DNA of 64,000 bases from an uncultured bacterium (lineage in GTDB: Bacteria > Patescibacteriota > Patescibacteriia > UBA9570 > XYC2-FULL-38-9). A program made the position numbers and the translations under genes. The stretch covers positions 45,322 to 109,321 of the forward strand of contig CALKUP010000001.1 in the NCBI GenBank assembly GCA_937996685.1, read 5' to 3'. Shown here piece after piece: positions 21,981-62,938 of this stretch (within the stretch, counting starts at the first letter, position 1; each line of letters begins with the position of its first letter). The notes beneath the pieces were generated by a model. The model had not been told where the DNA came from. It did no database searches and saw only the letters and a list, made by a program, of their open reading frames with translations.

Positions 21981-22172
21981 ATATACATATATATGTATGC
22001 CAAAATATCCTAGCAATGAATAGATGAAGTCGCAAGAATGTGGGATTTGCTTTTTTTGAGGAGCATCCGTAAGATTTGCGCATTGATTGTTCAAAAAGGG
22101 CGATCATGCTTTTTGAGAACATCAACAGTGCTCATGCCACCAGGTCCCAAGAGGCCTATAGAAGGAGGGCGC

Positions 22173-24087: not shown

Positions 24088-26996
<2,909 letters not shown>

Positions 26997-27209
26997 ATGG
27001 TCTTGACGTATAGTTGATACTATACCGCGTGCAAGACGCACGCTCTACGTTTCAGTTTGTATAAAAGCAAACAAGAGAAGAAACAACGCAGAAATATTTT
27101 GATCTATTCAGTTAAGTAACGTTTTATCGCAAGAGAGGTGATGCTCTCCTGTGATGAAAGCGGTTAGAGTCACCAGAGTTGTGATGCGAAACAGATTCGC
27201 GTAACAATT

Positions 27210-27314
27210 CTGGTGGTTCTAGCGACACGGAAACACCTGTTCCCATTCCGAACACAGCAGTTAAGCGTGTCAGCGCCGATGATAGCCTTCGGGTGAAAGT
27301 AGGTCACCGCCAGT
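27210..27314 (+). rRNA. rrf: 5S ribosomal RNA
   Basis: tctggtggttctagcgacacgg...gttcccattccgaacacagcagttaagc...gtaggtcaccgccag is typical 5S. Ends are approximate. Confidence 0.8.
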
Positions 27315-27326
27315 TTATCGATCTAA

Positions 27327-35871: not shown

Positions 35872-35928
35872 GTAAAAAAATGATGATCTTATTGCTTTTT
35901 TACCATATTTTCGGCAGTATAACAATGA

Positions 35929-37179
35929 ATGAAAAAACATAATCTCATTATTATTGGCGGCGGCGCATCTGGCTTGATGGCGGCTGTTGTGGTTGCTCGG
36001 CGAGGACAGCGCGTTTTGATTTTGGAAAAGAACGCCGTTGTTGGGCAAAAGCTCGCGATTACTGGCGGTGGGCGCTGTAACATTACAAATCTGCAAACAG
36101 ATCGACATGCGCTGCTAGCAAATTACGGCGCAGCGAGTAAATTTTTATTTTCTCCGTTCGCGCAGTTTTCAAATGAAGATACCGTTGAATTTTTTGAAGA
36201 GCTTGGACTCCCAATAAAAGTCGAGGCCAACAATCGTGCCTTCCCAGTTTCGGAATCCGCGCCAGATGTTGTTCGTGTGCTCAAAGAAGAGTGTGTGCGG
36301 CTCGGTGTCGAAATTCGGACACACGCGACTGTGAAACAGATTGAAAGTGCAAACGGCGCAATCACAGGAGTTGTGTGCGGCGGAGAAGTGCTGGTTGCAG
36401 ATTCGTATCTGCTTGCGACAGGCGGAAATTCACGCCCGGAAACAGGGTCAACCGGTGATGGATTTGCATGGTTGAAAGACCTTGAGCACACCGTTGTTGC
36501 GCCAACTCCAACGCTGGTGCCGTGGCTTTGTGCGGATAGCTGGACGAAACAAGCCTCTGGAGTGACACTAGAAAATGCCGCGCTGACAGTATTTGTGAAT
36601 GGTGCGAAAAAGGTTCGCAAAGTGGGGAATATATTGTGTACACACCAGGGCTTGTCTGGTCCGCTGATTTTGAATACATCCGGAGAGATTGCGCAGCCGC
36701 TTGCAGCTGGCGCAGCGGTCTCAGCGACAATTGATTTGTTTCCGACACTCGATCATGGAGCGCTTGATGCACAGCTTCTTGAATTGTTTGCGCTCGCGCC
36801 AAGCAAGCAAGTAAAAAATATTTTGACCGGACTTATTCCAGCGACACTTGTTCCGTCGGTGTTGTCGTTACTTGCAGCGAAGCAGACAGAAGATATCGCA
36901 GCCTTGACTGCAAGTGTGCTGCATCGCGAACAGCGTCGTGCGCTTGTGCAATTACTGAAGGCGATGCCAGTGACGGTTTCTGGCTTGGCAGGTTTTGAAA
37001 AGGCGATTGTGGCTGACGGTGGAGTCGCGCTAGAAGAAATTGATATGAAAACGATGCGCTCTAAAAAAATCAGCAATTTGTTTGTGACTGGAGATTTGTT
37101 ACATATCAATCGACCATCTGGTGGTTTTTCGTTGCAACTGTGTTGGACAACCGGTTTTGTTGCGGGGACGCATTGTTGA
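35929..37179 (+). CDS. HI0933-family flavoprotein (BaiN/aminoacetone-oxidase-like FAD enzyme)
   Basis: GGGASGLMAAV Rossmann motif, then EKNAVVGQKLAITGGGRCNITN, which is typical of the HI0933-like family; 416 aa. Confidence 0.75.
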   Translation: MKKHNLIIIGGGASGLMAAVVVARRGQRVLILEKNAVVGQKLAITGGGRCNITNLQTDRHALLANYGAASKFLFSPFAQFSNEDTVEFFEELGLPIKVEANNRAFPVSESAPDVVRVLKEECVRLGVEIRTHATVKQIESANGAITGVVCGGEVLVADSYLLATGGNSRPETGSTGDGFAWLKDLEHTVVAPTPTLVPWLCADSWTKQASGVTLENAALTVFVNGAKKVRKVGNILCTHQGLSGPLILNTSGEIAQPLAAGAAVSATIDLFPTLDHGALDAQLLELFALAPSKQVKNILTGLIPATLVPSVLSLLAAKQTEDIAALTASVLHREQRRALVQLLKAMPVTVSGLAGFEKAIVADGGVALEEIDMKTMRSKKISNLFVTGDLLHINRPSGGFSLQLCWTTGFVAGTHC

Positions 37180-37239
37180 ATAGAATAAGAAAATGTTCGG
37201 GCCGCCGACGGTGAAGTCAGCAGCCCGGGTGAGCGAGGG

Positions 37240-37539
37240 TCAGTCCTTGAACTCGACCCAGCCAACGCCAGTGTTGGCGTTGTAGTAGGCGGTATAGCCC
37301 GGCTCGGGCACAACACGCTCCGCCGTCATCCAGCCGGTGCCCTCGAACAAAAACATGCCGGGCGAACCAGACTCGTACGCCAGCTCCATGATGCGGAGGG
37401 AAGCAGGACCGGCCGAGGTCATGAAAACCACTGCGCCGGGGGTAGGTGCGTAGGCTTCGAGAAAGCCGAACGCGACTCCCTGAGCCGGGGGGTTGTGGAG
37501 ACTTGAGACAATGTTGAGTCGTGTCAATGGGCACCTCAT
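37240..37539 (-). CDS. hypothetical protein in a GC-rich islet
   Basis: ORF in a strongly GC-rich approximately 400-bp segment between the HI0933 gene and proS. No motif was found and the start is uncertain (track ORF 37240..37602). Confidence 0.25.
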   Translation of the reverse strand: MRCPLTRLNIVSSLHNPPAQGVAFGFLEAYAPTPGAVVFMTSAGPASLRIMELAYESGSPGMFLFEGTGWMTAERVVPEPGYTAYYNANTGVGWVEFKD

Positions 37540-43678: not shown

Positions 43679-44545
43679 ATGGTAACAACTGCTGTTATTC
43701 CAGTCGCAGGTCTCGGTACTCGTTTCTTGCCGCAAACAAAATCTGTCCCAAAAGAGTTGCTTCCCGTCGTTGATAAGCCAGTTATTCAGTATATTGTTGA
43801 AGAGGCGGTTGCGAGTGGTTTAACAAACATTATTTTTGTATTGTCCCCAGATAAAGAGGCGATTCGCGGCCACTTTTTTGAAAATGTAAAATTACAAGAT
43901 GAGTTAGTCAAAAAAGGAAAGCATACAGAACTCGCAACAATTTCTTCTTTGCATTCAATGGCAACGTTTCATTATGCAATTCAAGAAGAGCCACGTGGAC
44001 TTGGTGATGCGATTTTGAAAGCTCGTCCATTTATTCCAGAAGGTGAGGCGTGTGTTGTGTTTGGTGGTGATGATATTGTAGAAGGTGATGTGCCAGCAGC
44101 AAAACAGCTGATGGATGTGTATGAGCAATATCACGCGCCAGTCATTGGTGTAACAAATGTTGCAAAAGAAGATGTGGTTCGATATGGGATCATTGATCCA
44201 AAAGAATCATTAGACAATGCAGTGTTTTCATTGGATACCATCGTTGAAAAACCAGCTGTTGCAGATGCTCCGTCAACGCTTGGGGTTGGTGGTCGTTGGT
44301 TGATTACCGCTGATGTCCTTGATGAACTTGCGCGGACTCCAGAAGATGCGAGTGGTGAAATTCAAATCACAAAAGCTTTACAAACATTGGCTGAAACACA
44401 AACATTGTACGCAAAACAATATGAGGGTGTCTATCGTGATTGTGGAAATAAAATTGAGTATTTGAAAACGGTTATTACTTTTGCGTTAAAAAATCCAGAG
44501 ACACGTGATCAAATCGCTTCTTATATTCGACAACTTGATATATAA
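43679..44545 (+). CDS. galU: UTP--glucose-1-phosphate uridylyltransferase
   Basis: AVIPVAGLGTRFLPQTKSVPKELLPVVDKPVIQYIVEEA is the GalU signature. Confidence 0.85.
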   Translation: MVTTAVIPVAGLGTRFLPQTKSVPKELLPVVDKPVIQYIVEEAVASGLTNIIFVLSPDKEAIRGHFFENVKLQDELVKKGKHTELATISSLHSMATFHYAIQEEPRGLGDAILKARPFIPEGEACVVFGGDDIVEGDVPAAKQLMDVYEQYHAPVIGVTNVAKEDVVRYGIIDPKESLDNAVFSLDTIVEKPAVADAPSTLGVGGRWLITADVLDELARTPEDASGEIQITKALQTLAETQTLYAKQYEGVYRDCGNKIEYLKTVITFALKNPETRDQIASYIRQLDI

Positions 44546-44552
44546 TTATTTC

Positions 44553-45941
44553 ATGAAACGCTTTCGAGCATTGCTTACTCACACTCGGTCACGCGCCGCG
44601 CTGCTTGCTGTTATTTTGTTGTCGACACTTTCTTTGTCTGGCGCAAGTTGTGGCGGCACAGCGCTAACTGCCCCAGACCCGGTTGTATTAAAAGTATGGC
44701 GCTCAGAAGACAGTCAAGAAAATTTCCAAGCAGCAATGACTGCGTACACTGCGCAGTATCCACATGTGTCGTTTGAATATCGCGTCTTTCAACCAGAGGA
44801 GTATGAAGCGGCGCTGCTGTCTGCCTGGGCAAAGGGAGAGGGGCCGGACATTTTTTCTATTCCAAATAATGAAGTTGGCAATTTTCAGCAGTACATTGCG
44901 CCGATGCCAAAAAATGCATCATTTGCATATTCGTATACAAAAAAATCATTTGGCCGCACACAAACTGTCGTTGCGCAGCGTGATGTGACATTTTTAGTTC
45001 CGTCACAAATTCGTGATCAGTTTGCTCCAGCGGTTGGTTCTGATGTGATCATTGATAATGCTGTATATGGTTTGCCATATGCGCTTGATACAATGGTGTT
45101 GTATTACAACCGCGACATGCTTTCAAAAGCGCAGGTAGCTGTTCCGCCCGCAACCTGGGAAGACTATCGAAATGCCGTGCAAACAATCACACGTCGTGAT
45201 GAACAAAAAAATATTTTGCAAGCCGGGGGTTCAATTGGCACAGCCAATAATGTCCCGTATTTTTTCGATATTATTTCAGCGATCATGATGCAAAATGGCA
45301 CACAAATGGTGACGCCGTCTGGTCAAGTTGCCTTTGCTGAGGAGGTTAATGGAAATTTACGTGGTGCGGAAACAGTTGATTTTTACACAAAGTTTGCCAA
45401 TCCAGAGTGGCAAACGTACACATGGAATGCAACAGAGCCTGATAGTCGTTCAGCATTTATTGACGGCCGGACTGCCTTATTTTTTGGCTACGGACGTGAT
45501 CAAAAACGCATTCAACAACAAGCGCCAAATTTAAATTTTTCTTATAGCGCTTTACCGCAAATTGATTTGAATAATCGTGTTGATTATGCGTCCTACATGG
45601 TTGAAGTAGTGCATCTTGGATCAAAAAATCCAGAACATGCGTGGAATTTTATTCAAACAATCGCAACAACAGACCAAGGAAAAGTGTTTGCGGATGCAAT
45701 TGGCAGAACGCCAGCTCGTTTAGTTGATATTGCTGCGTTAAAAGATGATCCAGATCGTGGTGTCTTTGCAAAATCAGCACTGACTGCTCGAACGTGGTAT
45801 CACGGACAAGATTCTGGAGCGGCGGTCGCAGCGTTTAAGGAGTTGGTGGAAAATGTGCTTGCAAAAACCGGAACTGTTCAAGATTTAGTGAATATTGCCG
45901 CGCAAAAAGTCGCGCTTTCATGGCAAGCAAAAACAGAATAA
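44553..45941 (+). CDS. ABC-transporter extracellular solute-binding protein, family 1 sugar-type, probable lipoprotein
   Basis: Signal peptide with a Cys-containing lipobox-like LSGASCGG. The family 1 SBP pattern is present. No cognate permease or ATPase is adjacent. Confidence 0.65.
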   Translation: MKRFRALLTHTRSRAALLAVILLSTLSLSGASCGGTALTAPDPVVLKVWRSEDSQENFQAAMTAYTAQYPHVSFEYRVFQPEEYEAALLSAWAKGEGPDIFSIPNNEVGNFQQYIAPMPKNASFAYSYTKKSFGRTQTVVAQRDVTFLVPSQIRDQFAPAVGSDVIIDNAVYGLPYALDTMVLYYNRDMLSKAQVAVPPATWEDYRNAVQTITRRDEQKNILQAGGSIGTANNVPYFFDIISAIMMQNGTQMVTPSGQVAFAEEVNGNLRGAETVDFYTKFANPEWQTYTWNATEPDSRSAFIDGRTALFFGYGRDQKRIQQQAPNLNFSYSALPQIDLNNRVDYASYMVEVVHLGSKNPEHAWNFIQTIATTDQGKVFADAIGRTPARLVDIAALKDDPDRGVFAKSALTARTWYHGQDSGAAVAAFKELVENVLAKTGTVQDLVNIAAQKVALSWQAKTE

Positions 45942-45945
45942 GTAT

Positions 45946-46980
45946 ATGAATAGGATTACTCGCTCATTGTTCTCTGTCCGCCTTCTTTCGCTGGCGCTAT
46001 TAGGGTTTGTAAGTCTTGCTGTATTTACACCAAGTGTTGCATATGCAGATCAGGAAAGTGATTGTATTTCAAGTTGTGAGTCTGCATTTCCATCTGCGAC
46101 ATATACTCCTGACCCAGGAGATCCAAGAACGCCTCAGCAACAGGCAAGTTACGATAATTACCACACGTGTGTGAATGCGTGCATTGACCAATTTGGAGAT
46201 CAAGCACAGGCCGCTGCAGACGCGAATCAGGCAGCTGCAGACGCCGCTGCGGCTGCGGCTGATGCATTAGGAAATGCCGCTGCAGACGGCGGCAATACAA
46301 CAACTGGCAATGGCGCGACAACACCAACTGTGACAAATCCAACAGGAGGAACTACGCCGTCAGGTAAAGTGACGAATCCTGGAGCAACTGCTGACAGGGC
46401 GTTGCCAACTCTTTTGCCAGAATGTGCAACAACAACCGGTTCTTGTGGAATTTGTGATGTATTTGCAATGTTTGGAAATATCGCTGAAATTTTACTCGAT
46501 CTTATTTCTGGAGTTGTTATTTTAATGGTGATTGTTGGTGGGTTCTTCTGGATTAGTTCTGCCGGGAGTTCTGATCGTATTGATCGTGGAAAGCAGATTT
46601 TGATCGGCGCATTTATGGGCTCTATCTTTGTGTTTGCTGGTTTTGTACTTGTAAATCTCACAATGATCGCGTTGCTGGGCGGCTCTGGAAAAGCTGGGAA
46701 CTATGGAATTGTATCGCCGTTTGGTAATACGGAATGGAACAAGATATGCTCTGAAACCTCTGCGGTTGTACCACCTGCCGTTAATAACACGGCGACCGGG
46801 CAAAATCCAGCCCCAGCTCCGGTGCCGGTACCAGCTGGGTCTACATGTTATATTTTAGCCTCAGGTGGAGATGGTCGGCCATGTAAAGAGTCCACGTGCA
46901 ATGACGTGAATACATGTGTGTGTAAAGGAGTTCTTGACCCATCCTCTGGTTCAACGAGTTATTCTTGTGTGGCAAAATAA
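45946..46980 (+). CDS. long Cys-rich paralog of the TrbC/VirB2-like pilin family
   Basis: Signal-anchor segment. The extracellular regions are Cys-rich (CISSCES...CVNACIDQF and a C-terminal CNDVNTCVCKG). The central core LISGVVILMVIVGGFFWISSAGSSDRIDRGKQILIGAFMGSIFVFAGFVL aligns with the four short paralogs downstream. Confidence 0.6.
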   Translation: MNRITRSLFSVRLLSLALLGFVSLAVFTPSVAYADQESDCISSCESAFPSATYTPDPGDPRTPQQQASYDNYHTCVNACIDQFGDQAQAAADANQAAADAAAAAADALGNAAADGGNTTTGNGATTPTVTNPTGGTTPSGKVTNPGATADRALPTLLPECATTTGSCGICDVFAMFGNIAEILLDLISGVVILMVIVGGFFWISSAGSSDRIDRGKQILIGAFMGSIFVFAGFVLVNLTMIALLGGSGKAGNYGIVSPFGNTEWNKICSETSAVVPPAVNNTATGQNPAPAPVPVPAGSTCYILASGGDGRPCKESTCNDVNTCVCKGVLDPSSGSTSYSCVAK

Positions 46981-47057
46981 AAACAAGCACCTTTTGTTCT
47001 GTAAAATTTAGTCAAAAATAGCATGACATTGCAGCATGTCGTAATGATTGATATAGT

Positions 47058-47435
47058 ATGCATATGAAAAAATATTTTCGTTTTATCGCAATTGGAGCTG
47101 CGGTGTTCTTGCCGGTAATGGTGCAAGCAGCAACAAACACAGCTTCATTAATCAACCCAATTGGCGGTTCAACAACCAGTCCAAACGGCGTGACTGATCC
47201 AAATGTGTTGATCGCAAACATCATTCGGTCTGTATTGGGCGTTGTTGCAGTAATCGCACTGGTGGTGATTATTTACGGCGGTGTTGAAATGTTGATTTCA
47301 GCGGGAAATGAAGAGCGCGTGAAACGTGGTCGCGATTCATTGATGTGGGCGTTTATTGGTTTATTGATTGTTTTTGGAAGTTACGCGATTATCCGAGCAG
47401 CGTTCCAGGTATTAGGAGGAGAGACAATTACATAA
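47058..47435 (+). CDS. TrbC/VirB2-like pilin-family small membrane protein, paralog 1
   Basis: Signal peptide (VQA-ATNT), then two TM helices joined by the conserved loop ISAGNEERVKRG; 125 aa. Confidence 0.65.
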   Translation: MHMKKYFRFIAIGAAVFLPVMVQAATNTASLINPIGGSTTSPNGVTDPNVLIANIIRSVLGVVAVIALVVIIYGGVEMLISAGNEERVKRGRDSLMWAFIGLLIVFGSYAIIRAAFQVLGGETIT

Positions 47436-47454
47436 ATACCATGTTTGCAGTATT

Positions 47455-47486
47455 AAAAAAACTCTTGGAAATCCCAAGAGTTTTTT
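47455..47486. terminator. bidirectional rho-independent terminator
   Basis: Perfect hairpin ctcttgg-aaatc-ccaagag flanked by A7 upstream and T6 downstream, between convergent pilin genes. Confidence 0.75.
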
Positions 47487-47503
47487 GTAGTATACGTAAG
47501 TTT

Positions 47504-47857
47504 TTAAATAAATTGACCAAAGAGCAATAAGATGCTGAAAGAAGAGAAAATGATAATAAGGCCAATAATTGCCCATAGCAAAATTTGTCGACCAGTTTTA
47601 ATTTTGTCTTCGTTGCCAGCAGATGTCAGGATAGTAAACCCAGCGTAAATAATGAGCACTAACGCAACAACAGCAAGAACGCCGAGGCCGCTTTTAATGA
47701 TATTAAAAATATAATCAAGCAAACTTGTTTTTGGGAGTCCTGCGCCAGAAGCAACTCTGCCACCTGGGTCAAAGTATTGGGATGGTGATTGCGCAAGGGC
47801 TTGCACTGGGCTGCCGAGAGCAAGAGCGCCGAGGACGAGAAAAAAGGCATTTTTCAT
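47504..47857 (-). CDS. TrbC/VirB2-like pilin-family small membrane protein, paralog 2
   Basis: Start MKNAFFLVLGALALGSPVQALA is a signal peptide. Core is FTILTSAGNEDKIKTGRQILLWAIIGLIIIF. Confidence 0.65.
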   Translation of the reverse strand: MKNAFFLVLGALALGSPVQALAQSPSQYFDPGGRVASGAGLPKTSLLDYIFNIIKSGLGVLAVVALVLIIYAGFTILTSAGNEDKIKTGRQILLWAIIGLIIIFSSFSILLLFGQFI

Positions 47858-47874
47858 AGAAATAGCGTATGTCA

Positions 47875-48258
47875 TTATTGTGCGCCAGAGCCAGTTGCGC
47901 TGCCGATAGTGCCGAATAAATAGAGTGTGATTCCCCATGAAGCAAGAACAATCACAAGGCCAATTGCCGCAGCTGCGAGTGTGCTCTTTGCGGTTTTGAT
48001 TTTGTCTTCATTACCAGCGGCGGTCATCCATGTAAACCCAGCCCATAAAAATAATCCTAATGCAACAAGTGCCAAAAAGCTGAGCGCAACGTTCAAGACG
48101 TTGCCGACAATTGTTGTTGGACTATTTGTTCCAAGTCCAGTTTTTCCAATATCTGCTTCTAAGGTAGAGCTGATAAATGGAGCAGCAAAGGTTTTTGTTG
48201 GAAGGGTTGTGACAAGTAATCCGCCTACTGCGTACAAAAGATTTTTTATTTTCATCAT
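47875..48258 (-). CDS. TrbC/VirB2-like pilin-family small membrane protein, paralog 3
   Basis: Signal peptide ...TKTFA-APF. Core is FTWMTAAGNEDKIKTAKSTLAAAAIGLVIVLASWGI. It lies 17 nt upstream of paralog 2 on the same strand. Confidence 0.65.
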   Translation of the reverse strand: MMKIKNLLYAVGGLLVTTLPTKTFAAPFISSTLEADIGKTGLGTNSPTTIVGNVLNVALSFLALVALGLFLWAGFTWMTAAGNEDKIKTAKSTLAAAAIGLVIVLASWGITLYLFGTIGSATGSGAQ

Positions 48259-48350
48259 ATGAAAAGAATTATATTTAGACGTTCAATTTATAAAATCCTA
48301 ACATAAAGGACTCTTTGCGTCTATTCTGTTCCTGTTATGTTGTAGAGTGT

Positions 48351-48379
48351 TTGGCAAAAGATTCGTCTCGTGCTATTCT
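48351..48379 (+). promoter_or_regulatory. putative sigma70-like promoter of pilin paralog 4, in a divergent intergenic region
   Basis: TTGGCA, a 17-nt spacer, then TATTCT, about 35 nt upstream of a strong SD (aaaggaggtg) and the ATG at 48415. Confidence 0.45.
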
Positions 48380-48414
48380 GCAAGTACATATTATTCCAGA
48401 AAGGAGGTGACGAC

Positions 48415-48792
48415 ATGAAGAAACTCGCACGATTATTATCATCATTTGGTTTCACAGCGATGGGCTTGCTTGCTGCAAATCCCGTTTCTGCGCAATTGAA
48501 GACCAGCTTTTCAGGTTCTGAAGTTCCAGCACTTGGAACTCGAACTCCACAAGCGATCATCGGACAAGTAATCAACGTAGCGCTTGGTTTCTTGGCATTC
48601 GTTGCTGTTATCCTTATCCTATATGGTGGTTTTTTGTGGATGACTGCTGCCGGAAATGAAGATCGCGTTGAACAAGCGAAGAAATTATTAACAGCCGCTA
48701 TTATCGGTTTGGTAATTATTTTAGCTGCTTGGGGAATTTCCCTGTACGCTATTGGTACTCTTGCAACCGCTACTGGAACATCTGTCAAATAA
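48415..48792 (+). CDS. TrbC/VirB2-like pilin-family small membrane protein, paralog 4
   Basis: Strong SD. Signal peptide ...ANPVSA-QLK. Core is FLWMTAAGNEDRVEQAKKLLTAAIIGLVIILAAWGI. Confidence 0.7.
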   Translation: MKKLARLLSSFGFTAMGLLAANPVSAQLKTSFSGSEVPALGTRTPQAIIGQVINVALGFLAFVAVILILYGGFLWMTAAGNEDRVEQAKKLLTAAIIGLVIILAAWGISLYAIGTLATATGTSVK

Positions 48793-48810
48793 AAAACAGA
48801 CCAGTCAAAA

Positions 48811-48840
48811 AGGCGTCCGTTTATCGGGCGTCTTTTTTTT
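48811..48840 (+). terminator. probable terminator after pilin paralog 4
   Basis: Imperfect hairpin ggcgtccg...cgggcgtc followed by T8. Confidence 0.45.
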
Positions 48841-48869: not shown

Positions 48870-50936
48870 ATGAAAGCTATACATCGTTTACGATTTTTTT
48901 TGTTACAAGACTTTTTGTCTGTCCCGCGCCTGCTATGGTTCTGGATGATTGGAGTCTGCTGTGTTGTGATTGGAATCTGCGTCGTATCGTATACGCAATT
49001 TCAATATGCAGGCCTTGATCTTGGAATTTACAATCAAGTTCTATGGAATACAGCGCATGGTCGTTTATTTGAGTTTACATTTAATGAATCATCATATCTT
49101 GTTGATCACCGTGAATGGTTGTTGATTTTGTTGACGCCGATCTACTGGGTTGTAAATCAACCGCTTGTGTTGGTGGTAATTCAGTCAGTGATTGTGAACA
49201 GCGTTGTGATTCCGATGTATTTGCTTGCGCGAACAGTCTTTGACGGAATGGTGCCGCATCCAAAAAAAGCTGCGCTATTTGTTGCGGCAGCGGTATTATT
49301 GCATCCAACAATCTTAAATATGCAGCTGTTTGAGTTTCATGTCCTTGCGCTCACAGCACCGCTCGCTGTCTGGTGGTGGTATGGCATTGTGACGCAGCGC
49401 CGCTTTCGTTGGGTCTTTTTTATCATCCTGCTACTCATGCGTGAAGATGTTGCTATTACAACTGCTGGCGTCGGTGTGCTGCTGTATATAACAGAACAAA
49501 AACGTTGGAAGGAAGCGGCGGTGATTGTGATCGCGAGTGTTATGTGGTTTGCAGCGATGGTTTGGGCTGGAGGGTATTTTTCCGTTGAAGATAATCCATT
49601 ATTTTTCTCGTTGTATTCATGGATGGGAACCACGCCACTCAACGTGCTTCAGTACATGGCGCTGCATCCGCTGGCTGTGTTGCGACATGTGTTATCGGCT
49701 GGGAATATATTTTTGTTTTTATTATTTTTAATGAGCACGGCCTTTTTGCCGCTCCTTGCATTTCGTCGTTTGTTTCCGGCACTGCTCGGTTTGAGTGTCT
49801 ATTTTTTCATGGGCAGTATTAAAATTGGCATGGATATTTTTCTGTATCATTACGGAGTATTGATTACAATTTGGACATGTATCGCCGCGCTCTATGGATA
49901 CAGAAGATTATTTGATGATACAAAAAAATGGAAAGTGCCATTTTTTACACAGAAGGACATGCATTATTTTGCGGCGCCAATCGTGATGGTCGTATTGTTT
50001 TCAACCTGGGTATTTTTTGGGCTTCATTGGGCATTGCTTGATATTGTAAAACTGCATTCAGAAGATCGCAGTGGTTTGCGGGCGGTGATGCAAGATATTC
50101 CAGCAGACGCTTCGGTAATGGCGTCTGATCGAGTGTATCCATATCTTTCAAGTCGACAATTTTTGTATTCAACAAAATATATCAATAGCGGGTTAAAGCA
50201 CTATTCATCTCTTGCGTATCAATTTCGCTCCTTTGATTGGCTGGTGATGACTGATGAAGTGGCGCGGATGCAAAACGGTAGTTCAATTCAAACAAAAGCG
50301 AACTCGGTTAAGCGCTTGCGATACCAGTTGCAAAAAAACGCGCTTGTGCCAGTCCGCCTTTTTGAGCAAGGCGTGTTGTATGGACCGGCTGCTGCAGCAC
50401 CTGCTCCGTCAGAGCCTGTGCGGTCTGCCGTTGGTTTTGTGTCGCAGGTTCATGCAAATCAACGGGTGCATCCGACGGCACGCTTGGATGGATATACGTA
50501 TGATGATGCAACGCGTCAATTTTCTCTCCAACTGACACGTATGAACGATGATCAGGCGATAGCGTTTCGGGCTGATCATGAAGATGATCAAGAGCTCTTT
50601 GTTCGGGTGTTGTGGCACACGCGTTATGGTCTGCCAGCATCAACGCAATATCGATTGCTCGGTAGCGCAACAGATCCAATGTATCTCTGGGGGAATGACG
50701 AGTCGCGGGTTATGCAGCTGCCATGGATTTTTCCAGAAGGAGCAACGGATGTTCGGTTAGAATTTGGTAGTTTGTATTTACCGCCGCAGCACCTTGCTGT
50801 CACTCAAACAATGCCGCTTATGCGAAAGCCATTGCCGCTTGAATATACTGACGTTACGCCAATAGTGGCTGTTGATGAGCGTTGTAAAATCACCCCTACT
50901 CAAGAGCTTGGTTCTTGTAGCGTAAACACGAAATAG
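48870..50936 (+). CDS. DUF2079-family polytopic membrane protein, GT-C-like, paralog of the 14469..16381 gene
   Basis: Same motif class (AGLDLGIYNQVLWNTAHGRLFE) and multi-TM architecture as the gene at 14469..16381. Start is at the internal ATG (MKAIHRL). Confidence 0.6.
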   Translation: MKAIHRLRFFLLQDFLSVPRLLWFWMIGVCCVVIGICVVSYTQFQYAGLDLGIYNQVLWNTAHGRLFEFTFNESSYLVDHREWLLILLTPIYWVVNQPLVLVVIQSVIVNSVVIPMYLLARTVFDGMVPHPKKAALFVAAAVLLHPTILNMQLFEFHVLALTAPLAVWWWYGIVTQRRFRWVFFIILLLMREDVAITTAGVGVLLYITEQKRWKEAAVIVIASVMWFAAMVWAGGYFSVEDNPLFFSLYSWMGTTPLNVLQYMALHPLAVLRHVLSAGNIFLFLLFLMSTAFLPLLAFRRLFPALLGLSVYFFMGSIKIGMDIFLYHYGVLITIWTCIAALYGYRRLFDDTKKWKVPFFTQKDMHYFAAPIVMVVLFSTWVFFGLHWALLDIVKLHSEDRSGLRAVMQDIPADASVMASDRVYPYLSSRQFLYSTKYINSGLKHYSSLAYQFRSFDWLVMTDEVARMQNGSSIQTKANSVKRLRYQLQKNALVPVRLFEQGVLYGPAAAAPAPSEPVRSAVGFVSQVHANQRVHPTARLDGYTYDDATRQFSLQLTRMNDDQAIAFRADHEDDQELFVRVLWHTRYGLPASTQYRLLGSATDPMYLWGNDESRVMQLPWIFPEGATDVRLEFGSLYLPPQHLAVTQTMPLMRKPLPLEYTDVTPIVAVDERCKITPTQELGSCSVNTK

Positions 50937-52522
50937 TCGCTGTCTGCAAAAATTTCAATAAATCGCGGGTCAGCTTTGATGAGTCGAAGCATTCCGTTGT
51001 TTGATGTCTCGACAATTACGGCTTTTGCATGAAAGTCATCGCGAATGTGTTCGAAGACGTTGTCTTTTTGTGTGCCAAGCGTGATGTCATGCCAGAGCCA
51101 GTAGCGCGCTGGATCTTGGTGGTAGAGAAATGTTGGATCCAGTCCGACGATGTAGTGGTTTTGCCGATTCCAATAAAACAATTGCGGGAACATATCCCAG
51201 TCACTGTGAAACACAATATCACCAGGTTGTGTGTGCGCGGCAATCGCTTGAGAGGCTGCTTTTGTATCTGAGTAGACAAATCCAGATTGCAGATCAGCGT
51301 GAACATTTGTGATGTTTTGGATGCCGATGATTGCAATCAGTAAGATAGAAAGAATTGCAATTGCTCCATGGTTTGCGTATAGAATGACTGATTTTGGTGT
51401 TTGGATATATCGAGTCATTCGTTGTTCGATGGTTTCTAGGAATATCGATAACGATGCTCTGTGTGTGGATTCGTTGCGAACGGTGTCTCGGAGTAGAAAA
51501 GCACCACTGATAACCGCCCATGGAATCAGGTATTCAATGTATCGCTGAGATTTCAATGTAAATACCAGTAAAATGGAGCTGTACAAGAATAGTCCAATTG
51601 TTTCTCCAGATAGTCGTTTATAGCGCGTGAGTGCAAATATGCTACTGAGTAGCCAGGGGATCAGGACAATACTGTCTCGTAGTAACATGTTCGAAACAGC
51701 AATCGGATACCACTCTCTGCCGACGCCAATAACGTCTTGTGCGTTTAAGATACCGATCACAATCAGTTGTTGCCAGATGAGTGCAAAATGATCAGGGAAT
51801 GACGGATGGATCAGTAGTCCGCTGGCTGTGCCGATGAGAATAATGCCGAATGCTTTGAGGAGTGAGATTGCTTGTGTACGACGTTCCGTTGTTCGATTAA
51901 TAAGCCACGCGCCAGCGCCGCCAAGGGACAAGCATGCAGCAAGGAGTGGGAGGACGATAAATCCGCCGTAACTCCAGACAAAGAAAAAGCTCACAAGCAG
52001 TAAAAAGCGATGCCAACGTGGCTGCAGAAGCAGCATGACGCTGACAATTAAAAAGAGTGCGCTTGTGCTTGGAGCTTTGACGAGCCCCATGCGAAATAAA
52101 AAGCTGCTTGAAAGCAGCAAGGCAAGTATCCAGAGTTCTGAAAATGGCGCTTTGTTTTTTACGAGCAATGCATAGATGCCGACAATAACAAGGCTCGCTA
52201 AAATAATTGTCAGAATTTTTGCACCAAGAAATGGAGGCAAAAGCGTGACAAAGGGAATCAGTAAAACGTGATAGAGAAAATGATGGTCGGTGTAGTGTGT
52301 GCCGAGAGAGGTGTATGGTAGCCAAGAAAATGTGTGCGGAATATTGTGTGTGTCCCGAATTATTTCGGCCATTGCGATATGGTAGAAGGAGTCTGGGTCA
52401 GTAAAGCGTTCGCTATTGAGCGACCAGCTGTACAACGCAACACTGAGGCAAAATAGCAAAAGCCCAATAAGCAGTCGAGGAGCAAGATGTGAGTGGCGTT
52501 GATGCCAGGGAGTCTGCGTCAT
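50900..52522 (-). CDS. GT-C-fold-like polytopic membrane protein (putative glycosyltransferase)
   Basis: About 13 N-terminal TM helices plus a C-terminal soluble domain. The acidic loop motif FTDPDSFYH in the first extracytoplasmic loop is reminiscent of ArnT/PMT-type GT-C enzymes. The assignment is inferential. Confidence 0.45.
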   Translation of the reverse strand: MTQTPWHQRHSHLAPRLLIGLLLFCLSVALYSWSLNSERFTDPDSFYHIAMAEIIRDTHNIPHTFSWLPYTSLGTHYTDHHFLYHVLLIPFVTLLPPFLGAKILTIILASLVIVGIYALLVKNKAPFSELWILALLLSSSFLFRMGLVKAPSTSALFLIVSVMLLLQPRWHRFLLLVSFFFVWSYGGFIVLPLLAACLSLGGAGAWLINRTTERRTQAISLLKAFGIILIGTASGLLIHPSFPDHFALIWQQLIVIGILNAQDVIGVGREWYPIAVSNMLLRDSIVLIPWLLSSIFALTRYKRLSGETIGLFLYSSILLVFTLKSQRYIEYLIPWAVISGAFLLRDTVRNESTHRASLSIFLETIEQRMTRYIQTPKSVILYANHGAIAILSILLIAIIGIQNITNVHADLQSGFVYSDTKAASQAIAAHTQPGDIVFHSDWDMFPQLFYWNRQNHYIVGLDPTFLYHQDPARYWLWHDITLGTQKDNVFEHIRDDFHAKAVIVETSNNGMLRLIKADPRFIEIFADSDYFVFTLQEPSS

Positions 52523-53440: not shown

Positions 53441-53944
53441 ATGAAAATTCTTGGCATCGACCCCGGCCTTCATCGTGTCGGAATTGCGGTTGCTGATATT
53501 ACCGCTGGTCGCTACCAGCTTATTCAATGTGGTGTGATTACGACGCCATCTGAATTATCGCTTTCTGTGCGGTTAGTGCAGCTCCGTGATGATCTGACTG
53601 CATTTATCGCGCAACATCCGGATATTGCAGTGTGCGGCATTGAAGAATTGTTTTTTTCAAAAAACGTGACAACCGCTCCAATGGTCTATCAAGCGCGTGG
53701 GGTTATTTTGGAGTTGCTGGAACGCGTTGGTGTGCAATCGGTTATTTCGGTGAAGCCCCAGCATGTCAAACAATATGTCACAGGATCAGGCAGTGCTGAT
53801 AAGCGCGAGGTGCAAGAAATGGTGCGACATACGTTTCATTTGGATGCTGTACCGAAGCCGGATGATGCGGCTGATGCGGCGGCGATTGCGATTGCTGCAG
53901 AGGCGATATTTCGAAGCCAAGGGCACCAAAAAAACGCGTCATAG
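53441..53944 (+). CDS. ruvC: crossover junction endodeoxyribonuclease RuvC
   Basis: MKILGIDPGLHRVGIAVADI plus the catalytic acidic residues; 167 aa. Confidence 0.85.
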   Translation: MKILGIDPGLHRVGIAVADITAGRYQLIQCGVITTPSELSLSVRLVQLRDDLTAFIAQHPDIAVCGIEELFFSKNVTTAPMVYQARGVILELLERVGVQSVISVKPQHVKQYVTGSGSADKREVQEMVRHTFHLDAVPKPDDAADAAAIAIAAEAIFRSQGHQKNAS

Positions 53945-53950
53945 ACTCTT

Positions 53951-53979
53951 GATTTTTTGCTCCGTTTGTGGTATATTGA
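53951..53979 (+). promoter_or_regulatory. putative sigma70-like promoter of the inserted 7TM/ATP-grasp module
   Basis: TTGATT, a 17-nt spacer, then TATATT, immediately after the ruvC stop and about 18 nt upstream of the ATG at 53997. Confidence 0.5.
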
Positions 53980-53996
53980 GTAGGAATAATTTTCCT

Positions 53997-55571
53997 ATGA
54001 AACACTTTTTTCTTTTTAGCGTTTTGTGTGCAACGCTGACGCTGTTTGCGCCACACATTACGTTTGCTCAAGATGTCACGGCAGATCAAGCAGCTCCTGA
54101 GCCACTGGTGGTAAACGCAGGAACAGACGCGGCAGTTGTTGCTGGTCGATCTGTTCGTTTGGCGGCAACTGGCTCCACAAAGCCGGTGAATGTCGAAAAC
54201 CCGGAAATCGTGTACACCTGGGATTTTGGCGACGGATCAACCGATTCTGGGTTTGAAGTAAACCATGTTTATAAAGAAAGTGGTCGATATCGTGCCGTTG
54301 TCACAGGCAAGCGAATCGCAAACGGTGCGAGCGAAGAGATGTCTGATAGTGTTGAAGTGATTGTTCAAGACCGTTTGGCGTTATTAATTGTTGATAAAAC
54401 AATTTCAGCTGAACAAATTGCGCAATTGAAAAATTATGGCGCAACACAAGGGACGCTTGTGAGTGTTATTCAATCTGCCGGCGCGCCGCAAGAATCAGCA
54501 ATGGTGCAAGAACTCGCGCAAGAATTGTTGAAAGCGGAAGATGATGTGCGTTTGGCAAATGTTATTATTACATGGACATCTGGCAATACAGGTATTAACA
54601 CGTTGATTGAGTTGTCTCGTATTTTGGCGTTAAACGGAACGCCGTCAGATCAATACAATTTTGAAGACAAGGCGATTGTGAGTATTTCGGACAATCAGCC
54701 AATTTCAACAAGTGCTCGTTTAGCACAAAATGTGTTTCAAGGGTTGAACCCGGGCTTCATTGTCGTTGCTGATCGTGTGGTGATGAATCCGGCGATTAAA
54801 GCGGAATCTCCAACACAATTGGAAGAAGCGTTGCGATATAGTGATGCACAATATCAAATCATCACTCCATACACCGCGCGTGGCATCGGAAAGTTGTCGC
54901 CGGCAAACTTCTTGTCATTCACAATGAATTACATGGTGAATAACGGAGTTCCGGTTAATTCCTTGTATTTGATTCTCATGCTTCCAGTGCTAGCGACGAT
55001 TGTTGCGGCAACTCGCCAATTGGTTGGTATTAAAGCCTTTGGTATTTTTGTCCCAACCGTGCTTGCGTTGTCGTTTCTTGGAACTGGATTGAAATATGGT
55101 CTGACGATTTTTGTGAGTCTTGTGATTTTGGGTTCGATTGCGCGTCTGCTGGCTCGCAAATTGAAAATCGCCTATTTACCACGCATGGCAATTGTAATTT
55201 CTTTGCTTGCGTTTTGTATTTTCACAATGTTTTTTGTTGGCGCGCTGTTTAACAAAACAGGCTTTATCGCAGTGTCAGTGTTCCCAATTTTGATCATGAC
55301 TGTGATTACTGAGCATTTTATTACCGAGCAAATTGAGCAAGGCTGGAAAAGTGCAATGAAGCTCTCGATTGAGACATTGATTTTGGCATTGATTGGTTTC
55401 TCAATTGCTGATTGGACATGGTTCAAAAGTGTTGTCTTGGCATTCCCGGAATTGATCTTGCTCACTTTTGTCATTAATTATGGTATTGGTAAATTTACTG
55501 GTTTGCGTTTGACTGAATATATCCGATTCCGTCACGTCTTTAAACATATCCGCAATGCTGAAAAGTCTTAA
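53997..55571 (+). CDS. secreted PKD-domain protein with a C-terminal 7-TM domain (7TM component of a RimK-like ATP-grasp/retropepsin system)
   Basis: Signal peptide MKHFFLFSVLCATLTLFAPHITFA. PKD-like segment YTWDFGDGSTDSGFEVNHVYKESGRYRAVV. An extracellular region of about 250 aa follows, then seven hydrophobic helices in the last ~250 aa. The stop overlaps the next gene. Confidence 0.65.
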   Translation: MKHFFLFSVLCATLTLFAPHITFAQDVTADQAAPEPLVVNAGTDAAVVAGRSVRLAATGSTKPVNVENPEIVYTWDFGDGSTDSGFEVNHVYKESGRYRAVVTGKRIANGASEEMSDSVEVIVQDRLALLIVDKTISAEQIAQLKNYGATQGTLVSVIQSAGAPQESAMVQELAQELLKAEDDVRLANVIITWTSGNTGINTLIELSRILALNGTPSDQYNFEDKAIVSISDNQPISTSARLAQNVFQGLNPGFIVVADRVVMNPAIKAESPTQLEEALRYSDAQYQIITPYTARGIGKLSPANFLSFTMNYMVNNGVPVNSLYLILMLPVLATIVAATRQLVGIKAFGIFVPTVLALSFLGTGLKYGLTIFVSLVILGSIARLLARKLKIAYLPRMAIVISLLAFCIFTMFFVGALFNKTGFIAVSVFPILIMTVITEHFITEQIEQGWKSAMKLSIETLILALIGFSIADWTWFKSVVLAFPELILLTFVINYGIGKFTGLRLTEYIRFRHVFKHIRNAEKS

Positions 55572-57054
55572 TAAAGTTTTAGGCATTAACGCTCGAAACC
55601 GAGTGTATTTGCGAGCCAATAAAAAACACGCTCGCAATATTGCCGATGATAAGCTTGCAACCAAAAAAATCCTCATTGATAACAGCATTGGAACTGCTGA
55701 TTTGCTGGCGGTGATTCATAATACAAATGATATTCGTGAGTTTGATTGGGAGTCCTTGCCGTCAACATTTGTCATTAAGCCAAACAAAGGTTTTGGCGGG
55801 CAAGGTATTTTGGTGATTTTTAATCGTTTGAAAAACGGGAATTGGATTACAACCAACAAAAAACAACTAACGGTCAATGATCTGCAAGAGCATATTCGTA
55901 ATATTTTAGATGGTAATTTTTCGTTATTGAATACAGCAGATACGGCGATTATTGAGTCTCGTCTTTCAATGAGTCCGTTTTTCAAAGTGTTTTCAACCCA
56001 AGGAATCCCAGATATCCGTGTGGTGGTATACAACGGTGTGCCGGTTATGGCGATGATTCGGGTTCCGACCAAAAAGTCTGAAGGCAAGGCAAATCTCGCG
56101 CAAGGAGGTATCGCGATCGGCATTGATATTGCGACCGGCCGGACAACCTATGCTGTTGTGAAGTCATGGCTCTATGAAAAAGAAATTGAGTTTCACCCAG
56201 ACACAGGAGCACAGTTGCGCGGGAAGCAGATTCCGTTATGGAACGATATTTTGCTGACTGCAGTGCGAGCAGCGCAGGCAACAGGCATGCGATATGCTGG
56301 CGTTGATGTGTCAGTTGATAAAGTAATCGGACCGGTTGTATTAGAATTAAATGCGCGACCAGGACTGGGCATTCAAGTGGCAAACATGTTGCCGCTTCGA
56401 GATCGATTGCAACGCATTCGAGGATTGAAAGTAAAATCCCCAGAAAGTGGCATTGCGCTCGCAAAAGAATTATTTGCCGGGCCATTTGATGCCGAAGTAG
56501 AAAATATTACAGGCCGACAAGTGATTGGATTGCAAGAGCCTGTTTCTGTGTGGGCTGATTCAGCTCAAAAAGTGGAAACGTTTGCAAAGATTGATTCTGG
56601 CGCAAAGACAAGTTCGATTGATGAAGCGCTGGCTCGTCAACTTGGGTTTGGCCCTGAGCTGGATCTATTTGCACAGTCTGCAAAACAGAATTTTGCAACA
56701 AAAGTAGAAGCTCATGTGCATGCAGAGCAATTGAAAAAAACACTCAGTGCTCAATCAGAGAAGATTGCTGACGTGAGTGTTGTCACCTCATCTCATGGAA
56801 TGTCGATCCGAATGCATGTCCGGATTACAGTGGTGCTTTCTGGACGGGAAATGATCATTACCCCAAATGTCTATAATCGAGAAAATCTGACATATCCTAT
56901 TTTAGTGGGTGTGACAGATCTTGGATTTTATTTGCTTGATCCGAGTAAAGCAGCGTCTGCAGAAGTGAAGGCCTTTCGGGCAGAGCGCAAAAAAACCATC
57001 GAGGAAAAAGTGCATCACGAAGTAGATATTGCAGAAATCGACGCAGCAGAGTAA
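55555..57054 (+). CDS. RimK-like ATP-grasp ligase (alpha-L-glutamate-ligase-related) fused to a C-terminal retropepsin-like (clan AA, DSGA) protease domain
   Basis: The N-terminal LGINARNRVYLRANKKHARNIADDKLATKKIL...PNKGFGGQGILVI and ...VVLELNARPGLGIQ follow the ATP-grasp/RimK-related pattern. The C-terminal FAKIDSGAKTSSID carries the D-S/T-G-A aspartyl-protease signature. It overlaps the upstream gene by 17 nt. Confidence 0.65.
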   Translation: MLKSLNKVLGINARNRVYLRANKKHARNIADDKLATKKILIDNSIGTADLLAVIHNTNDIREFDWESLPSTFVIKPNKGFGGQGILVIFNRLKNGNWITTNKKQLTVNDLQEHIRNILDGNFSLLNTADTAIIESRLSMSPFFKVFSTQGIPDIRVVVYNGVPVMAMIRVPTKKSEGKANLAQGGIAIGIDIATGRTTYAVVKSWLYEKEIEFHPDTGAQLRGKQIPLWNDILLTAVRAAQATGMRYAGVDVSVDKVIGPVVLELNARPGLGIQVANMLPLRDRLQRIRGLKVKSPESGIALAKELFAGPFDAEVENITGRQVIGLQEPVSVWADSAQKVETFAKIDSGAKTSSIDEALARQLGFGPELDLFAQSAKQNFATKVEAHVHAEQLKKTLSAQSEKIADVSVVTSSHGMSIRMHVRITVVLSGREMIITPNVYNRENLTYPILVGVTDLGFYLLDPSKAASAEVKAFRAERKKTIEEKVHHEVDIAEIDAAE

Positions 57055-61754: not shown

Positions 61755-61985
61755 ATGCCAAAAACACCAGCCAAAAAAGGAGTCAAAAAAACCAGCGATG
61801 ATTTTCATATTGGAAAAGAAATGGAGGCACTGGAGCAAGCGATTGACGCGATTGAAAGTGAAGACGGTGATATTGATGCGTCTATTGAGCAGCTGACAAT
61901 TGCAATGGAAAAAGCCAAGCTCATTCGTGCGCATTTGAAACAAGCGCAATTACGAGTTGATGAATTAACAAGTAGTGATCTATGA
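61755..61985 (+). CDS. xseB: exodeoxyribonuclease VII small subunit
   Basis: FHIGKEMEALEQAIDAIESEDGDIDASIEQLTIAMEKAKLIRAHLKQAQLRVDEL is a typical XseB coiled coil; 76 aa. Confidence 0.85.
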   Translation: MPKTPAKKGVKKTSDDFHIGKEMEALEQAIDAIESEDGDIDASIEQLTIAMEKAKLIRAHLKQAQLRVDELTSSDL

Positions 61986-62938
61986 AAAAAATAGTAACAG
62001 TATTGTTTTTATACAGTGGAGATGATTGGGAGAAATCGGCCCCTTTTTTACAAACACCTTTTCAAGACAATGGATATCGAAATTTTTATACACGCGGCCT
62101 CAATGAATTCGGCATACTTTGTGTGCGAGCGTCTATTGATTGGTATCAAAACGGTGTCTGGCAAAAATATTGGACATTTGATGGTGAGCAATGGGTCAAG
62201 CATGACGAGTCTATTCGCCCAGATATTGTTGTTGATAAATCAGGTTTGTATTTCCCTTCGTATCAGAAGCTGCAGGACATGCAGCAACATGTGGTTTTGT
62301 TAAATGCATGGGAATTAAAAATGATCGCTTCTGATAAATTGATTACATCCGTTGTCTTTCAGGACTTGATGCCACAATCAAAATTAGTGTATACGACAGA
62401 TCAGCTGATTCAAGCAATCACGGGTATGGAATCGGCAGATATTGTAATCAAGCCGCAGCATGGCTTTGGTGGAAATGGGATTGTTATCTTGCCGGCAGAA
62501 GAAGCAAAGCAAGTAGAAATCCATGAGCCGTGTATTGTACAACCATTTATTGATACATCCGGTGGTATTCATGGCATTGTCCAAGGGTACCATGATTTAC
62601 GCGTTGTTGTGATGGGTGATAATCCGGCATATTCTTTTGTTCGTACTCCCGCTCCAGGTTCAAAGTTGTGTAATTTAGCACAAGGTGGCAGCGCGCTCTA
62701 TGTTCCGCTTGCTGATGTCCCATCCGCGGTCATGGATCTTATTACCCGTGTGCGACGTCAATTACAAACGTTTCCGCACTCGATTTATTCCGTTGATTTT
62801 TTGTTTGACGAACATCAAAAGCCGTGGATTGTTGAAATGAATGCCACGACCGGCCTTGATTATCGTGATGAGTCACCTGAGTTGAAGCAATTTGGTTACG
62901 ATGCGCATTTTCGTTATTTCCTTTCATTGGTAAAATAG
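61982..62938 (+). CDS. ATP-grasp domain protein (RimK/glutathione-synthetase-like ligase, unassigned)
   Basis: IVIKPQHGFGGNGIVIL, HDLRVVVMGD, NLAQGGSALYVP and PWIVEMNATTGLD follow the ATP-grasp pattern. The start overlaps the xseB stop by 4 nt. Confidence 0.6.
   Translation: MKKIVTVLFLYSGDDWEKSAPFLQTPFQDNGYRNFYTRGLNEFGILCVRASIDWYQNGVWQKYWTFDGEQWVKHDESIRPDIVVDKSGLYFPSYQKLQDMQQHVVLLNAWELKMIASDKLITSVVFQDLMPQSKLVYTTDQLIQAITGMESADIVIKPQHGFGGNGIVILPAEEAKQVEIHEPCIVQPFIDTSGGIHGIVQGYHDLRVVVMGDNPAYSFVRTPAPGSKLCNLAQGGSALYVPLADVPSAVMDLITRVRRQLQTFPHSIYSVDFLFDEHQKPWIVEMNATTGLDYRDESPELKQFGYDAHFRYFLSLVK

Follow-up and report, generated by a model that had tools for sequence, protein, structure and literature searches.

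The 64-kb stretch of an uncultured patescibacterial genome analyzed here (the window, part of a 267-kb contig, CALKUP010000001.1) contains five adjacent genes for small membrane proteins of pilin type, which we call L, A, B, C, and D. We think it fairly probable that this locus is a chromosomal array of VirB2-like pilins that feeds the pilus or conduit of a type IV secretion system (T4SS) used for host contact, the core of the system being encoded elsewhere in the genome. A, B, C, and D are canonical short pilins, and L is an extended, cysteine-rich relative.

The five open reading frames (ORFs) had been singled out in an earlier note, made from the sequence alone, as paralogous TrbC/VirB2-like pilins, and all are present at the coordinates and on the strands given there (Table 1). 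A, B, C, and D all score above the gathering cutoff (26.6 bits) of the Pfam family PF18895 (T4SS_pilin), with E-values of 1e-6 to 2e-11. Model NF045849 ("pilin-like conjugal transfer protein"; cutoff 40 bits) is passed by B (41.3 bits) and D (45.1 bits), with A (35.1 bits) and C (35.3 bits) just below it and no match from L. When a hidden Markov model (HMM) built from homologs was run against a six-frame translation of the whole window, exactly these five ORFs were matched and nothing else at E ≤ 10. The short proteins are mutually 31–48% identical, and the core of L is 28–36% identical to them over 60–88 residues. Alignment of the five cores (28–48% pairwise identity overall) thus bears out the proposed paralogy and contains the charged-loop motif that had been quoted, here reading Y-G/A-G-F-x-W/I-M/L-T/S-A/S-A-G-N-E-D/E-K/R-I/V ... 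A-I-I-G-L-V/I-I. By these measures the five genes are paralogous pilins, with a similarity far beyond chance.

The layout of PF18895-type proteins, a leader followed by two helices joined by a short polar loop, is found in all five. Hydropathy analysis gives two hydrophobic helices in each protein, and cleavage-type sites of the form A/V/S-x-A occur in every one (VQA↓A, ALA↓Q, TFA↓A, VSA↓Q, and AYA↓D). At a Kyte-Doolittle threshold of 1.6 an N-terminal hydrophobic stretch is detected in L, A, and B, and those of C and D fall below the threshold; of the architecture proposed earlier, then, the helices and cleavage-type sites hold for all five proteins and the hydrophobic leader for three. An AlphaFold2 model of D, made with 32 homologs, has helices at residues 45–77 and 82–120, with block-mean values of the predicted local distance difference test mostly of about 90 or more.

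L scores 11.5 bits against PF18895, below the cutoff. Profile methods place it in the family all the same: the short-pilin HMM matches L at E = 1.1e-11, and a comparison by hhalign of L and its three closest relatives with 32 short pilins gave 97.3% probability (E = 2.2e-11, 71 columns). PF18895 itself is matched by 29 of 40 members of the subfamily to which L belongs (best E = 9.3e-11). Judged by these profiles, L is a divergent member of the same pilin family.

Two other identities were considered for proteins of this size. Type IV pilins of the PilA-like kind were rejected, the prepilin motif G-F/Y-T/S-L-I/V-E being absent from every window ORF of at least 50 residues. Small proteins with two hydrophobic helices might also be membrane-active peptides of holin-like or bacteriocin-like type, and the structure search returned only generic hairpins and helices of pore-forming toxins, none of them significant. 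We find this explanation scarcely credible, however, given the matches to curated pilin models, the lack of any holin or bacteriocin family at E ≤ 1, of lysis, immunity, or export genes nearby, and of relatives in phage collections, and the essentiality of the family within a patescibacterial T4SS cluster, described next.

In Southlakia epibionticum, six PF18895 genes (SEML1_0014–0019) lie in a T4SS cluster together with genes for a DUF87/VirB4-like ATPase, PrgI, and TrbL/VirB6, and those of the six that were displayed scored as essential by transposon sequencing; according to the supplement, that cluster contains no solute-binding protein (Wang et al. 2023, PMC10633639). A survey of 3,035 Patescibacteria assemblies found VirB4 in 2,417 (about 80%), with VirB2-like pilins, detected by profiles that include PF18895 and PF04956, in 1,948 of the VirB4-positive assemblies; as only 1,135 of these have pilin genes close to virB4, detached arrays are common (Quinonero-Coronel et al. 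2025, PMC12102498). The same survey counted 441 arrays of 2–11 pilin genes in 383 assemblies, with identities averaging 25% and reaching at most 54%. An array is defined there as at least two pilin genes of low identity in tandem or with one non-pilin gene between them, a definition that covers the five adjacent genes of the window (28–48% identical). The cluster had been treated earlier as unusual; Patescibacteria were however already known from the literature to have arrays of pilin genes, often remote from virB4 (PMC12102498), and an array of divergent VirB2-like pilins away from virB4 in a genome from the candidate phyla radiation (CPR) is an already described class. The assemblies related to ours are not listed in the supplement of that survey. 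One further locus in our comparison, L001, contains a tandem run of six PF18895 genes, and T4SS genes are absent from the 10 kb around it.

The array resembles the rest of the window in base composition, and no relatives of it were found by tblastn against 72,556 PLSDB plasmids or in a scan of IMG/VR viral contigs; we therefore place it on the chromosome rather than on a recognizable mobile element. An integrative and conjugative element (ICE) or other mobile element was rejected on these grounds together with the housekeeping flanks and conserved synteny. Homolog records are named "Patescibacteria group bacterium," and the window has wall genes of FemAB and LytR type and no outer-membrane genes.

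Comparison with related genomes bears on the age of the paralogs. In assembly GCA_964492735.1 (L003) the five genes recur with order and orientation unchanged, as do the genes downstream of them, and each window gene is closer to its L003 counterpart (48–84% identity; Table 1) than to any of its own paralogs (31–48%). In the more distant loci L004–L006 and L014, where L is 34–43% identical to ours (34–48% across the genomes compared), the L-, A-, and B-types are still present one-to-one; these loci carry two or three genes of C/D type, the only lineage-specific turnover seen. Because one-to-one positional orthologs are kept in such diverged genomes, the duplications must predate the lineages and each copy has been retained, and the "old, maintained family" of the earlier note is upheld. 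The orthology marks the paralogs as ancient, non-redundant, and not interchangeable.

This pattern bears on the choice between distinct structural roles and the published idea that such paralogs are interchangeable variants serving surface variation or host-range switching. The latter has been suggested for Patescibacteria arrays (PMC12102498), and VirB2 arrays of Bartonella and Anaplasma are read as antigenic or host-interaction variation in the passages of that paper that cite them; it would account for multiple divergent copies of one surface-exposed protein, and separate transcription units with their own terminators would permit differential expression. For the window locus we nevertheless judge it improbable. 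Positional orthologs persist one-to-one across genomes in which L itself is only 34–48% identical, and ortholog identity exceeds paralog identity, which is the signature of old, subfunctionalized genes and not of ongoing diversification. Distinct structural roles fit the orthology better.

From its N-terminus, L has a signal peptide, a helical hairpin with a twin CX3C motif (C40/C44 and C75/C79), a low-complexity linker rich in Ala, Thr, and Gly, a C-x6-C-x2-C motif, the two pilin helices (residues 169–204 and 209–243 in the AlphaFold2 model) with an SAGSSDR loop between them, a W-x3-C motif, and a Cys-rich tail. Cys-rich regions had been described earlier as flanking the core, and indeed none of the 14 cysteines falls within the signal peptide, either helix, or the loop; all are predicted to be in segments outside the cell. 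A Foldseek search with the L model gave no significant match. Its top-ranked match was the Aeropyrum pernix conjugation pilus (PDB 8dfu; E = 1.6, TM-score 0.67 on the target, 76 columns).

In an exhaustive HMM search with L and its relatives, the cluster representatives matched numbered 5,905 at E ≤ 1e-3, of which 378 reached E ≤ 1e-10. Subfamily statistics were taken on 152 proteins, comprising the best 150 listed and two earlier matches. At least 180 residues are found in 124 of the 152 and at least four Cys in 140; by comparison, among 120 homologs of D, a short pilin, 93 lack Cys entirely. Cys counts are even in 117 members versus odd in 35, the commonest form being about 230 residues long with 16 Cys, which is also the mode. 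Three Cys are invariant before helix 1, in P-x-C-A-x3-G-x-C-x2-C-D, and one after helix 2, in F/L-G ... W-x3-C; the C-terminal region has a conserved Cys pattern that ends in C-P-x4-V-C-C in most members. Relative to the commonest form, L is shorter in its C-terminal region, where it has seven Cys, and possesses in addition the N-terminal helical hairpin with its twin CX3C and the linker; close relatives have a twin CX8C in place of the twin CX3C. Searched on their own, the Cys-rich parts of L and of the protein P0123 match no Pfam family, and the literature searched contains no paper on Cys-rich pilins in Patescibacteria. Taken on these alignments, extended pilins with a Cys-rich C-terminus form a widespread subfamily.

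Sixteen of the 152 members have four Cys in total, and in most of the short members listed helix 1 is preceded by three and helix 2 followed by one. Were all four oxidized, we infer that one disulfide would have to join the N- and C-terminal outside segments. The Agrobacterium T-pilin and the RP4 pilin TrbC undergo covalent head-to-tail cyclization. A disulfide staple of this kind would recall that cyclization as a functional analogue.

Directly upstream of L lies a gene for a solute-binding protein (SBP), whose stop codon is 4 nucleotides before the L start. Its product has an N-terminus reading ...LSLSGAS-C, and in all SBP orthologs a Cys stands at the end of the leader, as in lipoproteins. 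Eight distinct contexts were compared: the window and related loci L003/L007, L004–L006, L008, L014, L015, L016, and L017. The SBP gene, encoding about 460 residues, immediately precedes the Cys-rich pilin gene in all seven contexts with visible upstream sequence, with gaps of −11 to +8 nucleotides; in the eighth (L003/L007) the contig begins too near the pilin gene to show what precedes it. These SBP orthologs are 36–70% identical to that of the window over about 440 residues. On its other side, in eight contexts out of eight, the Cys-rich pilin gene lies 8–77 nucleotides upstream of an A-type pilin gene that is followed by further PF18895 genes. L may thus be made together with the SBP lipoprotein, and the two may act together.

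The wider surroundings are partly conserved. A gene of the NTP_transferase family precedes the SBP gene in L004–L006, L014, and L015, a close homolog is recognizable by eye in L008, and L016 has a UDPGP-family gene two genes upstream. The DUF2079 gene downstream of D also follows the array in L003 and L004–L006, lies inside it in L015, and is absent in L014; its product is probably not part of the pilin function. Beyond the array the order is DUF2079, a polytopic membrane protein of 540 residues, YebC, a PKD/7TM_transglut protein, an ATP-grasp protein, and RuvA. In one relative, L004, a PMT_2 (GT-C-type) gene sits between the genes for DUF2079 and the 540-residue protein. Together, the genes for DUF2079, the 540-residue protein, PMT_2, and NTP_transferase suggest an envelope glycosylation neighborhood around the array.

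Several results count against the assignment to a T4SS. About 50 ORFs of the window were scanned against Pfam or NCBIfam, and VirB4, VirB6, VirD4, and PrgI were not found among them, in agreement with the earlier statement that VirB4, VirB6, and VirD4 are missing from the window; window ORFs without a family match have no Walker-A motif. No T4SS gene lies within 7–10 kb of the array in any related locus, and the conserved neighbors are the SBP, the sugar-nucleotide transferase, and DUF2079 rather than secretion genes. The earlier assignment to TrbC/VirB2 holds for PF18895, passed by four proteins, and for NF045849, passed by two, but not for PF04956, the TrbC/VirB2 family proper (cutoff 27.9 bits), where the best score is that of B (16.3 bits, E = 0.012). 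Some database homologs carry precomputed PF04956 matches. An hhalign comparison of 32 CPR pilins with four VirB2/TrbC proteins annotated in plasmid records aligned the two groups in register, with a G-T-x-D-P motif before helix 1 common to these pilins and to Agrobacterium-type VirB2 (E = 1.3e-4, 55 columns); at 53.7%, its probability is itself a point against the assignment, and the tie to classical VirB2/TrbC is remote and only suggestive. A profile search of all PDB sequences gave nothing at E ≤ 10. Structure searches do not single out conjugative pilins, and they are uninformative because a helical hairpin resembles too many folds. A pilus in Patescibacteria is, moreover, described in the literature consulted as predicted or potential only. 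A 2025 review calls the potential of the patescibacterial systems to form conjugative pili unique among monoderms (PMC12857230). The link between the array and a secretion machine is thus one that we infer.

Part of this evidence would suit a module that is independent of any T4SS, in which SBP, Cys-rich pilin-like protein, and two-helix proteins would together build an envelope assembly of their own, either a surface structure or an uptake-related complex, with a pilin fold borrowed from T4SS ancestry and no dependence on VirB4. The constancy of the coupling between SBP and Cys-rich pilin in every visible context, the envelope and sugar genes around it (NTP_transferase, DUF2079, PMT_2), and the lack of T4SS genes in the window and related loci all agree with such a module, and so does the lack in the window of any ABC permease or ATPase that could serve the SBP, no ABC ATPase-like ORF being present there. 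We regard it as unlikely. PF18895 genes form part of the T4SS cluster of S. epibionticum, and in 1,135 assemblies the pilins neighbor virB4; the presence of VirB4 in about 80% of Patescibacteria assemblies makes a core encoded elsewhere the default expectation; and no comparable system is known.

Under the preferred reading of a pilin array serving a T4SS, the proteins would be inserted by Sec and their signal peptides removed, giving a membrane pool of subunits in which the loop faces the cytoplasm and both termini lie outside. Extraction of these subunits, and their polymerization into a pilus or conduit for host-cell contact, would fall to a VirB4-driven T4SS of monoderm type encoded elsewhere. 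The major subunit is likely to be D, since no other copy is as conserved and since D is provided with both a Shine-Dalgarno sequence and a terminator of its own, and A, B, and C would be non-redundant minor or co-polymerizing subunits. L would be a minor pilin whose core fits the filament lattice and whose disulfide-bonded N- and C-terminal regions stand outside as a tip, cap, or adhesin, possibly acting with the co-produced solute-binding lipoprotein.

A bolder proposal, to which we give a low probability, is that the Cys-rich extended pilins are a distinct and undescribed class of minor pilin, in which a disulfide staple joins the outside ends and the Cys-rich regions form a host-binding tip. 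Together with the lipoprotein they would make up the adhesin or receptor-binding part that T4SS surveys have missed. The pilus might even be coupled in this way to the capture of host-derived sugars.

Set beside known systems, the locus is closest to the published patescibacterial VirB2 arrays, with which it shares PF18895, several divergent paralogs in a row, the leader and two helices, a chromosomal location, and a monoderm CPR host. It differs from them in its mixed orientation, in having no virB4, virB6, or prgI within 64 kb, in being headed by an extended Cys-rich pilin gene, and in the translational coupling of that gene to an SBP gene; neither of the last two features is mentioned in the literature searched. 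Conjugative pilins of the VirB2/TrbC/TraA group (PF04956), which belong to diderm T4SSs, are similar in size, cleaved leader, hairpin with short loop, and G-T-x-D-P motif, and give the weak in-register profile match described above, whereas the window pilins fall below the PF04956 cutoff, have a loop that is 8 residues longer and acidic (AGNEDK), and are without adjacent virB genes, signs of head-to-tail cyclization, or tblastn matches on plasmids. The pilin-like protein of Mycoplasma ICEs (NF045849; Mbov_0395 / MMCAP2_0565), whose cutoff B and D pass, likewise comes from a monoderm host, but its gene belongs to a mobile element and ours form a five-gene chromosomal array in housekeeping synteny. 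The host system of the mycoplasma ICE is a T4SS of the FATA class. In archaea, the A. pernix pilus that ranked first with the L model serves conjugation and DNA import and is likewise built from a VirB2-like hairpin pilin; that match is not significant, and no sequence similarity was detected. The Bartonella and Anaplasma arrays share the tandem multiplication of a pilin gene and differ in that the window copies are ancient and positionally orthologous across genomes.

The arrangement of the genes is as first described: A and B are convergent, C lies 17 nucleotides upstream of B on the same strand, and C and D are divergent. One length needs correction, since the product of L is not 361 residues long; that figure belongs to a TTG-extended ORF from 45895 that overlaps the upstream gene, and the 344-residue form is the one held in the public protein collection. 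The locus had also been credited with clean terminators and a promoter-like element, of which two terminator-like hairpins bear up and the promoter does not. The hairpin between A and B has a folding energy of −20.6 kcal/mol on one strand and −17.9 kcal/mol on the other (z = −5.1 and −4.2; none of 200 shuffled sequences as good), and that behind D is comparably distinct (z in Table 1). A hairpin in the L–A spacer is no better than shuffled sequence (z = 0.17). Promoter-like sites number 8 versus 6.6 ± 3.0 expected, which is not above chance. D is preceded by a strong Shine-Dalgarno sequence, AAAGGAGGTG, at 48400–48409, and appears to be monocistronic. Upstream of C (48259–48275, minus strand) there is a perfect TATAAT about 8 nucleotides before the ATG, without a Shine-Dalgarno sequence, a possible sign that the transcript of the C–B pair has no leader or a very short one.

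Table 1. Features of the pilin array and its immediate neighbors in the window
Feature	Position	Strand	Description	Identity to counterpart in L003
NTP_transferase gene	43679-44545	+	sugar-nucleotide pyrophosphorylase-like; PF00483 93.6 bits	
SBP-like gene (SBP_bac_1/8)	44553-45941	+	probable lipoprotein; PF13416 91.4 bits, PF01547 64.8 bits	
L	45946-46980	+	extended Cys-rich pilin; 344 residues, 14 Cys	48%
A	47058-47435	+	canonical pilin; 125 residues; PF18895 38.5 bits	70%
Hairpin between A and B	47455-47486	both	bidirectional, intrinsic-terminator-like; A-run, 7-bp G+C-containing stem, T-run	
B	47504-47857	-	canonical pilin; 117 residues; PF18895 29.1 bits	66%
C	47875-48258	-	canonical pilin; 127 residues; PF18895 42.0 bits	61%
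Promoter-like element and Shine-Dalgarno sequence upstream of D	48351-48409	+	TTGGCA-17-TATTCT with TG; promoter match indistinguishable from chance	
D	48415-48792	+	canonical pilin; 125 residues; PF18895 44.5 bits	84% (most conserved paralog)
Hairpin 3' of D	48807-48837	+	intrinsic-terminator-like; 13 pairs, then T-run; z -4.5	
DUF2079 gene	48871-50936	+	polytopic membrane protein, downstream neighbor; PF09852 171.3 bits	

Some neighbors of the array deserve mention in their own right. The window has a second gene for a DUF2079 polytopic membrane protein at 14366–16381 (plus strand), besides the one in Table 1. The conserved 540-residue protein that adjoins the latter (50900–52522, minus strand) has about eight hydrophobic segments and no family match. 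At 53763–57054 (plus strand), a membrane protein with PKD and 7TM_transglut domains stands ahead of an ATPgrasp_ST/Zn_protease fusion; both are kept downstream of the module in L003, and the first gene also in L004. A further ATP-grasp gene lies 5 kb beyond the fusion, at 61982–62938 (plus strand). A scan of the genome collection with a four-sequence alignment yielded only three loci. The contigs L007 and L009 (CAZBLE01), titled "uncultured Gammaproteobacteria bacterium," and L008 (JBIIKE010000041.1), titled "Bdellovibrionales bacterium," carry the patescibacterial pilin module and synteny, so that these bins are probably mislabeled or contaminated.

Elsewhere in the window, a complete purA gene for adenylosuccinate synthetase (22173–23441, plus strand; PF00709, 559.6 bits) has a G+C content of 0.66 versus a window mean of 0.46, with sharp borders in composition at about 22100 and 23450. 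It lies between a tRNA gene (21898–21980) and the 23S rRNA gene and, from its composition, looks like a purine-salvage gene acquired recently and horizontally from a high-G+C donor. The minus-strand ORF at 22122–23528 is spurious, purA being the real gene. Genes for 23S and 5S rRNA occupy 24090–27315, preceded by about 650 non-coding, A+T-rich bases; no 16S rRNA gene reached the Rfam gathering score anywhere in the 64 kb, and rRNA genes therefore appear to be unlinked here.

At 12093–14348 (minus strand), a protein of 751 residues combines a leader, lamin-tail domains (PF00932, 114 bits), a sub-threshold OB-fold, and a C-terminal hydrophobic anchor, and may be a surface nucleic-acid-binding protein. 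An ORF of up to 867 residues (33505–36108, minus strand) matches neither Pfam nor NCBIfam and has a Nudix-box-like stretch by eye. Its listed start is overlapped by a 416-residue ORF (35929–37179, plus strand) whose N-terminus resembles, by eye, that of FAD-binding flavoproteins; the true start of the longer ORF is therefore probably further downstream. Minus-strand ORFs at 36123–37316 are spurious, the flavoprotein-like ORF being the real gene.

In the only Patescibacteria species studied genetically, growth on the host depends on the T4SS and its array of pilins, both of them essential, and both their role and the mode of host contact are obscure (PMC11665869, PMC12857230). By itself, the locus described here is one more array. 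What appears to be new relative to the literature searched is the Cys-rich extended subfamily, its pairing with an SBP, and the positional orthology of the paralogs. Should the module instead turn out to need no VirB4, it would represent a new envelope structure that makes use of a pilin fold. Old and non-redundant paralogs argue for a multi-subunit structure over surface variation, the constant pairing with an SBP lipoprotein suggests a partner for the Cys-rich pilin, and the widespread disulfide-rich paralog class is a candidate for the missing adhesin or tip.

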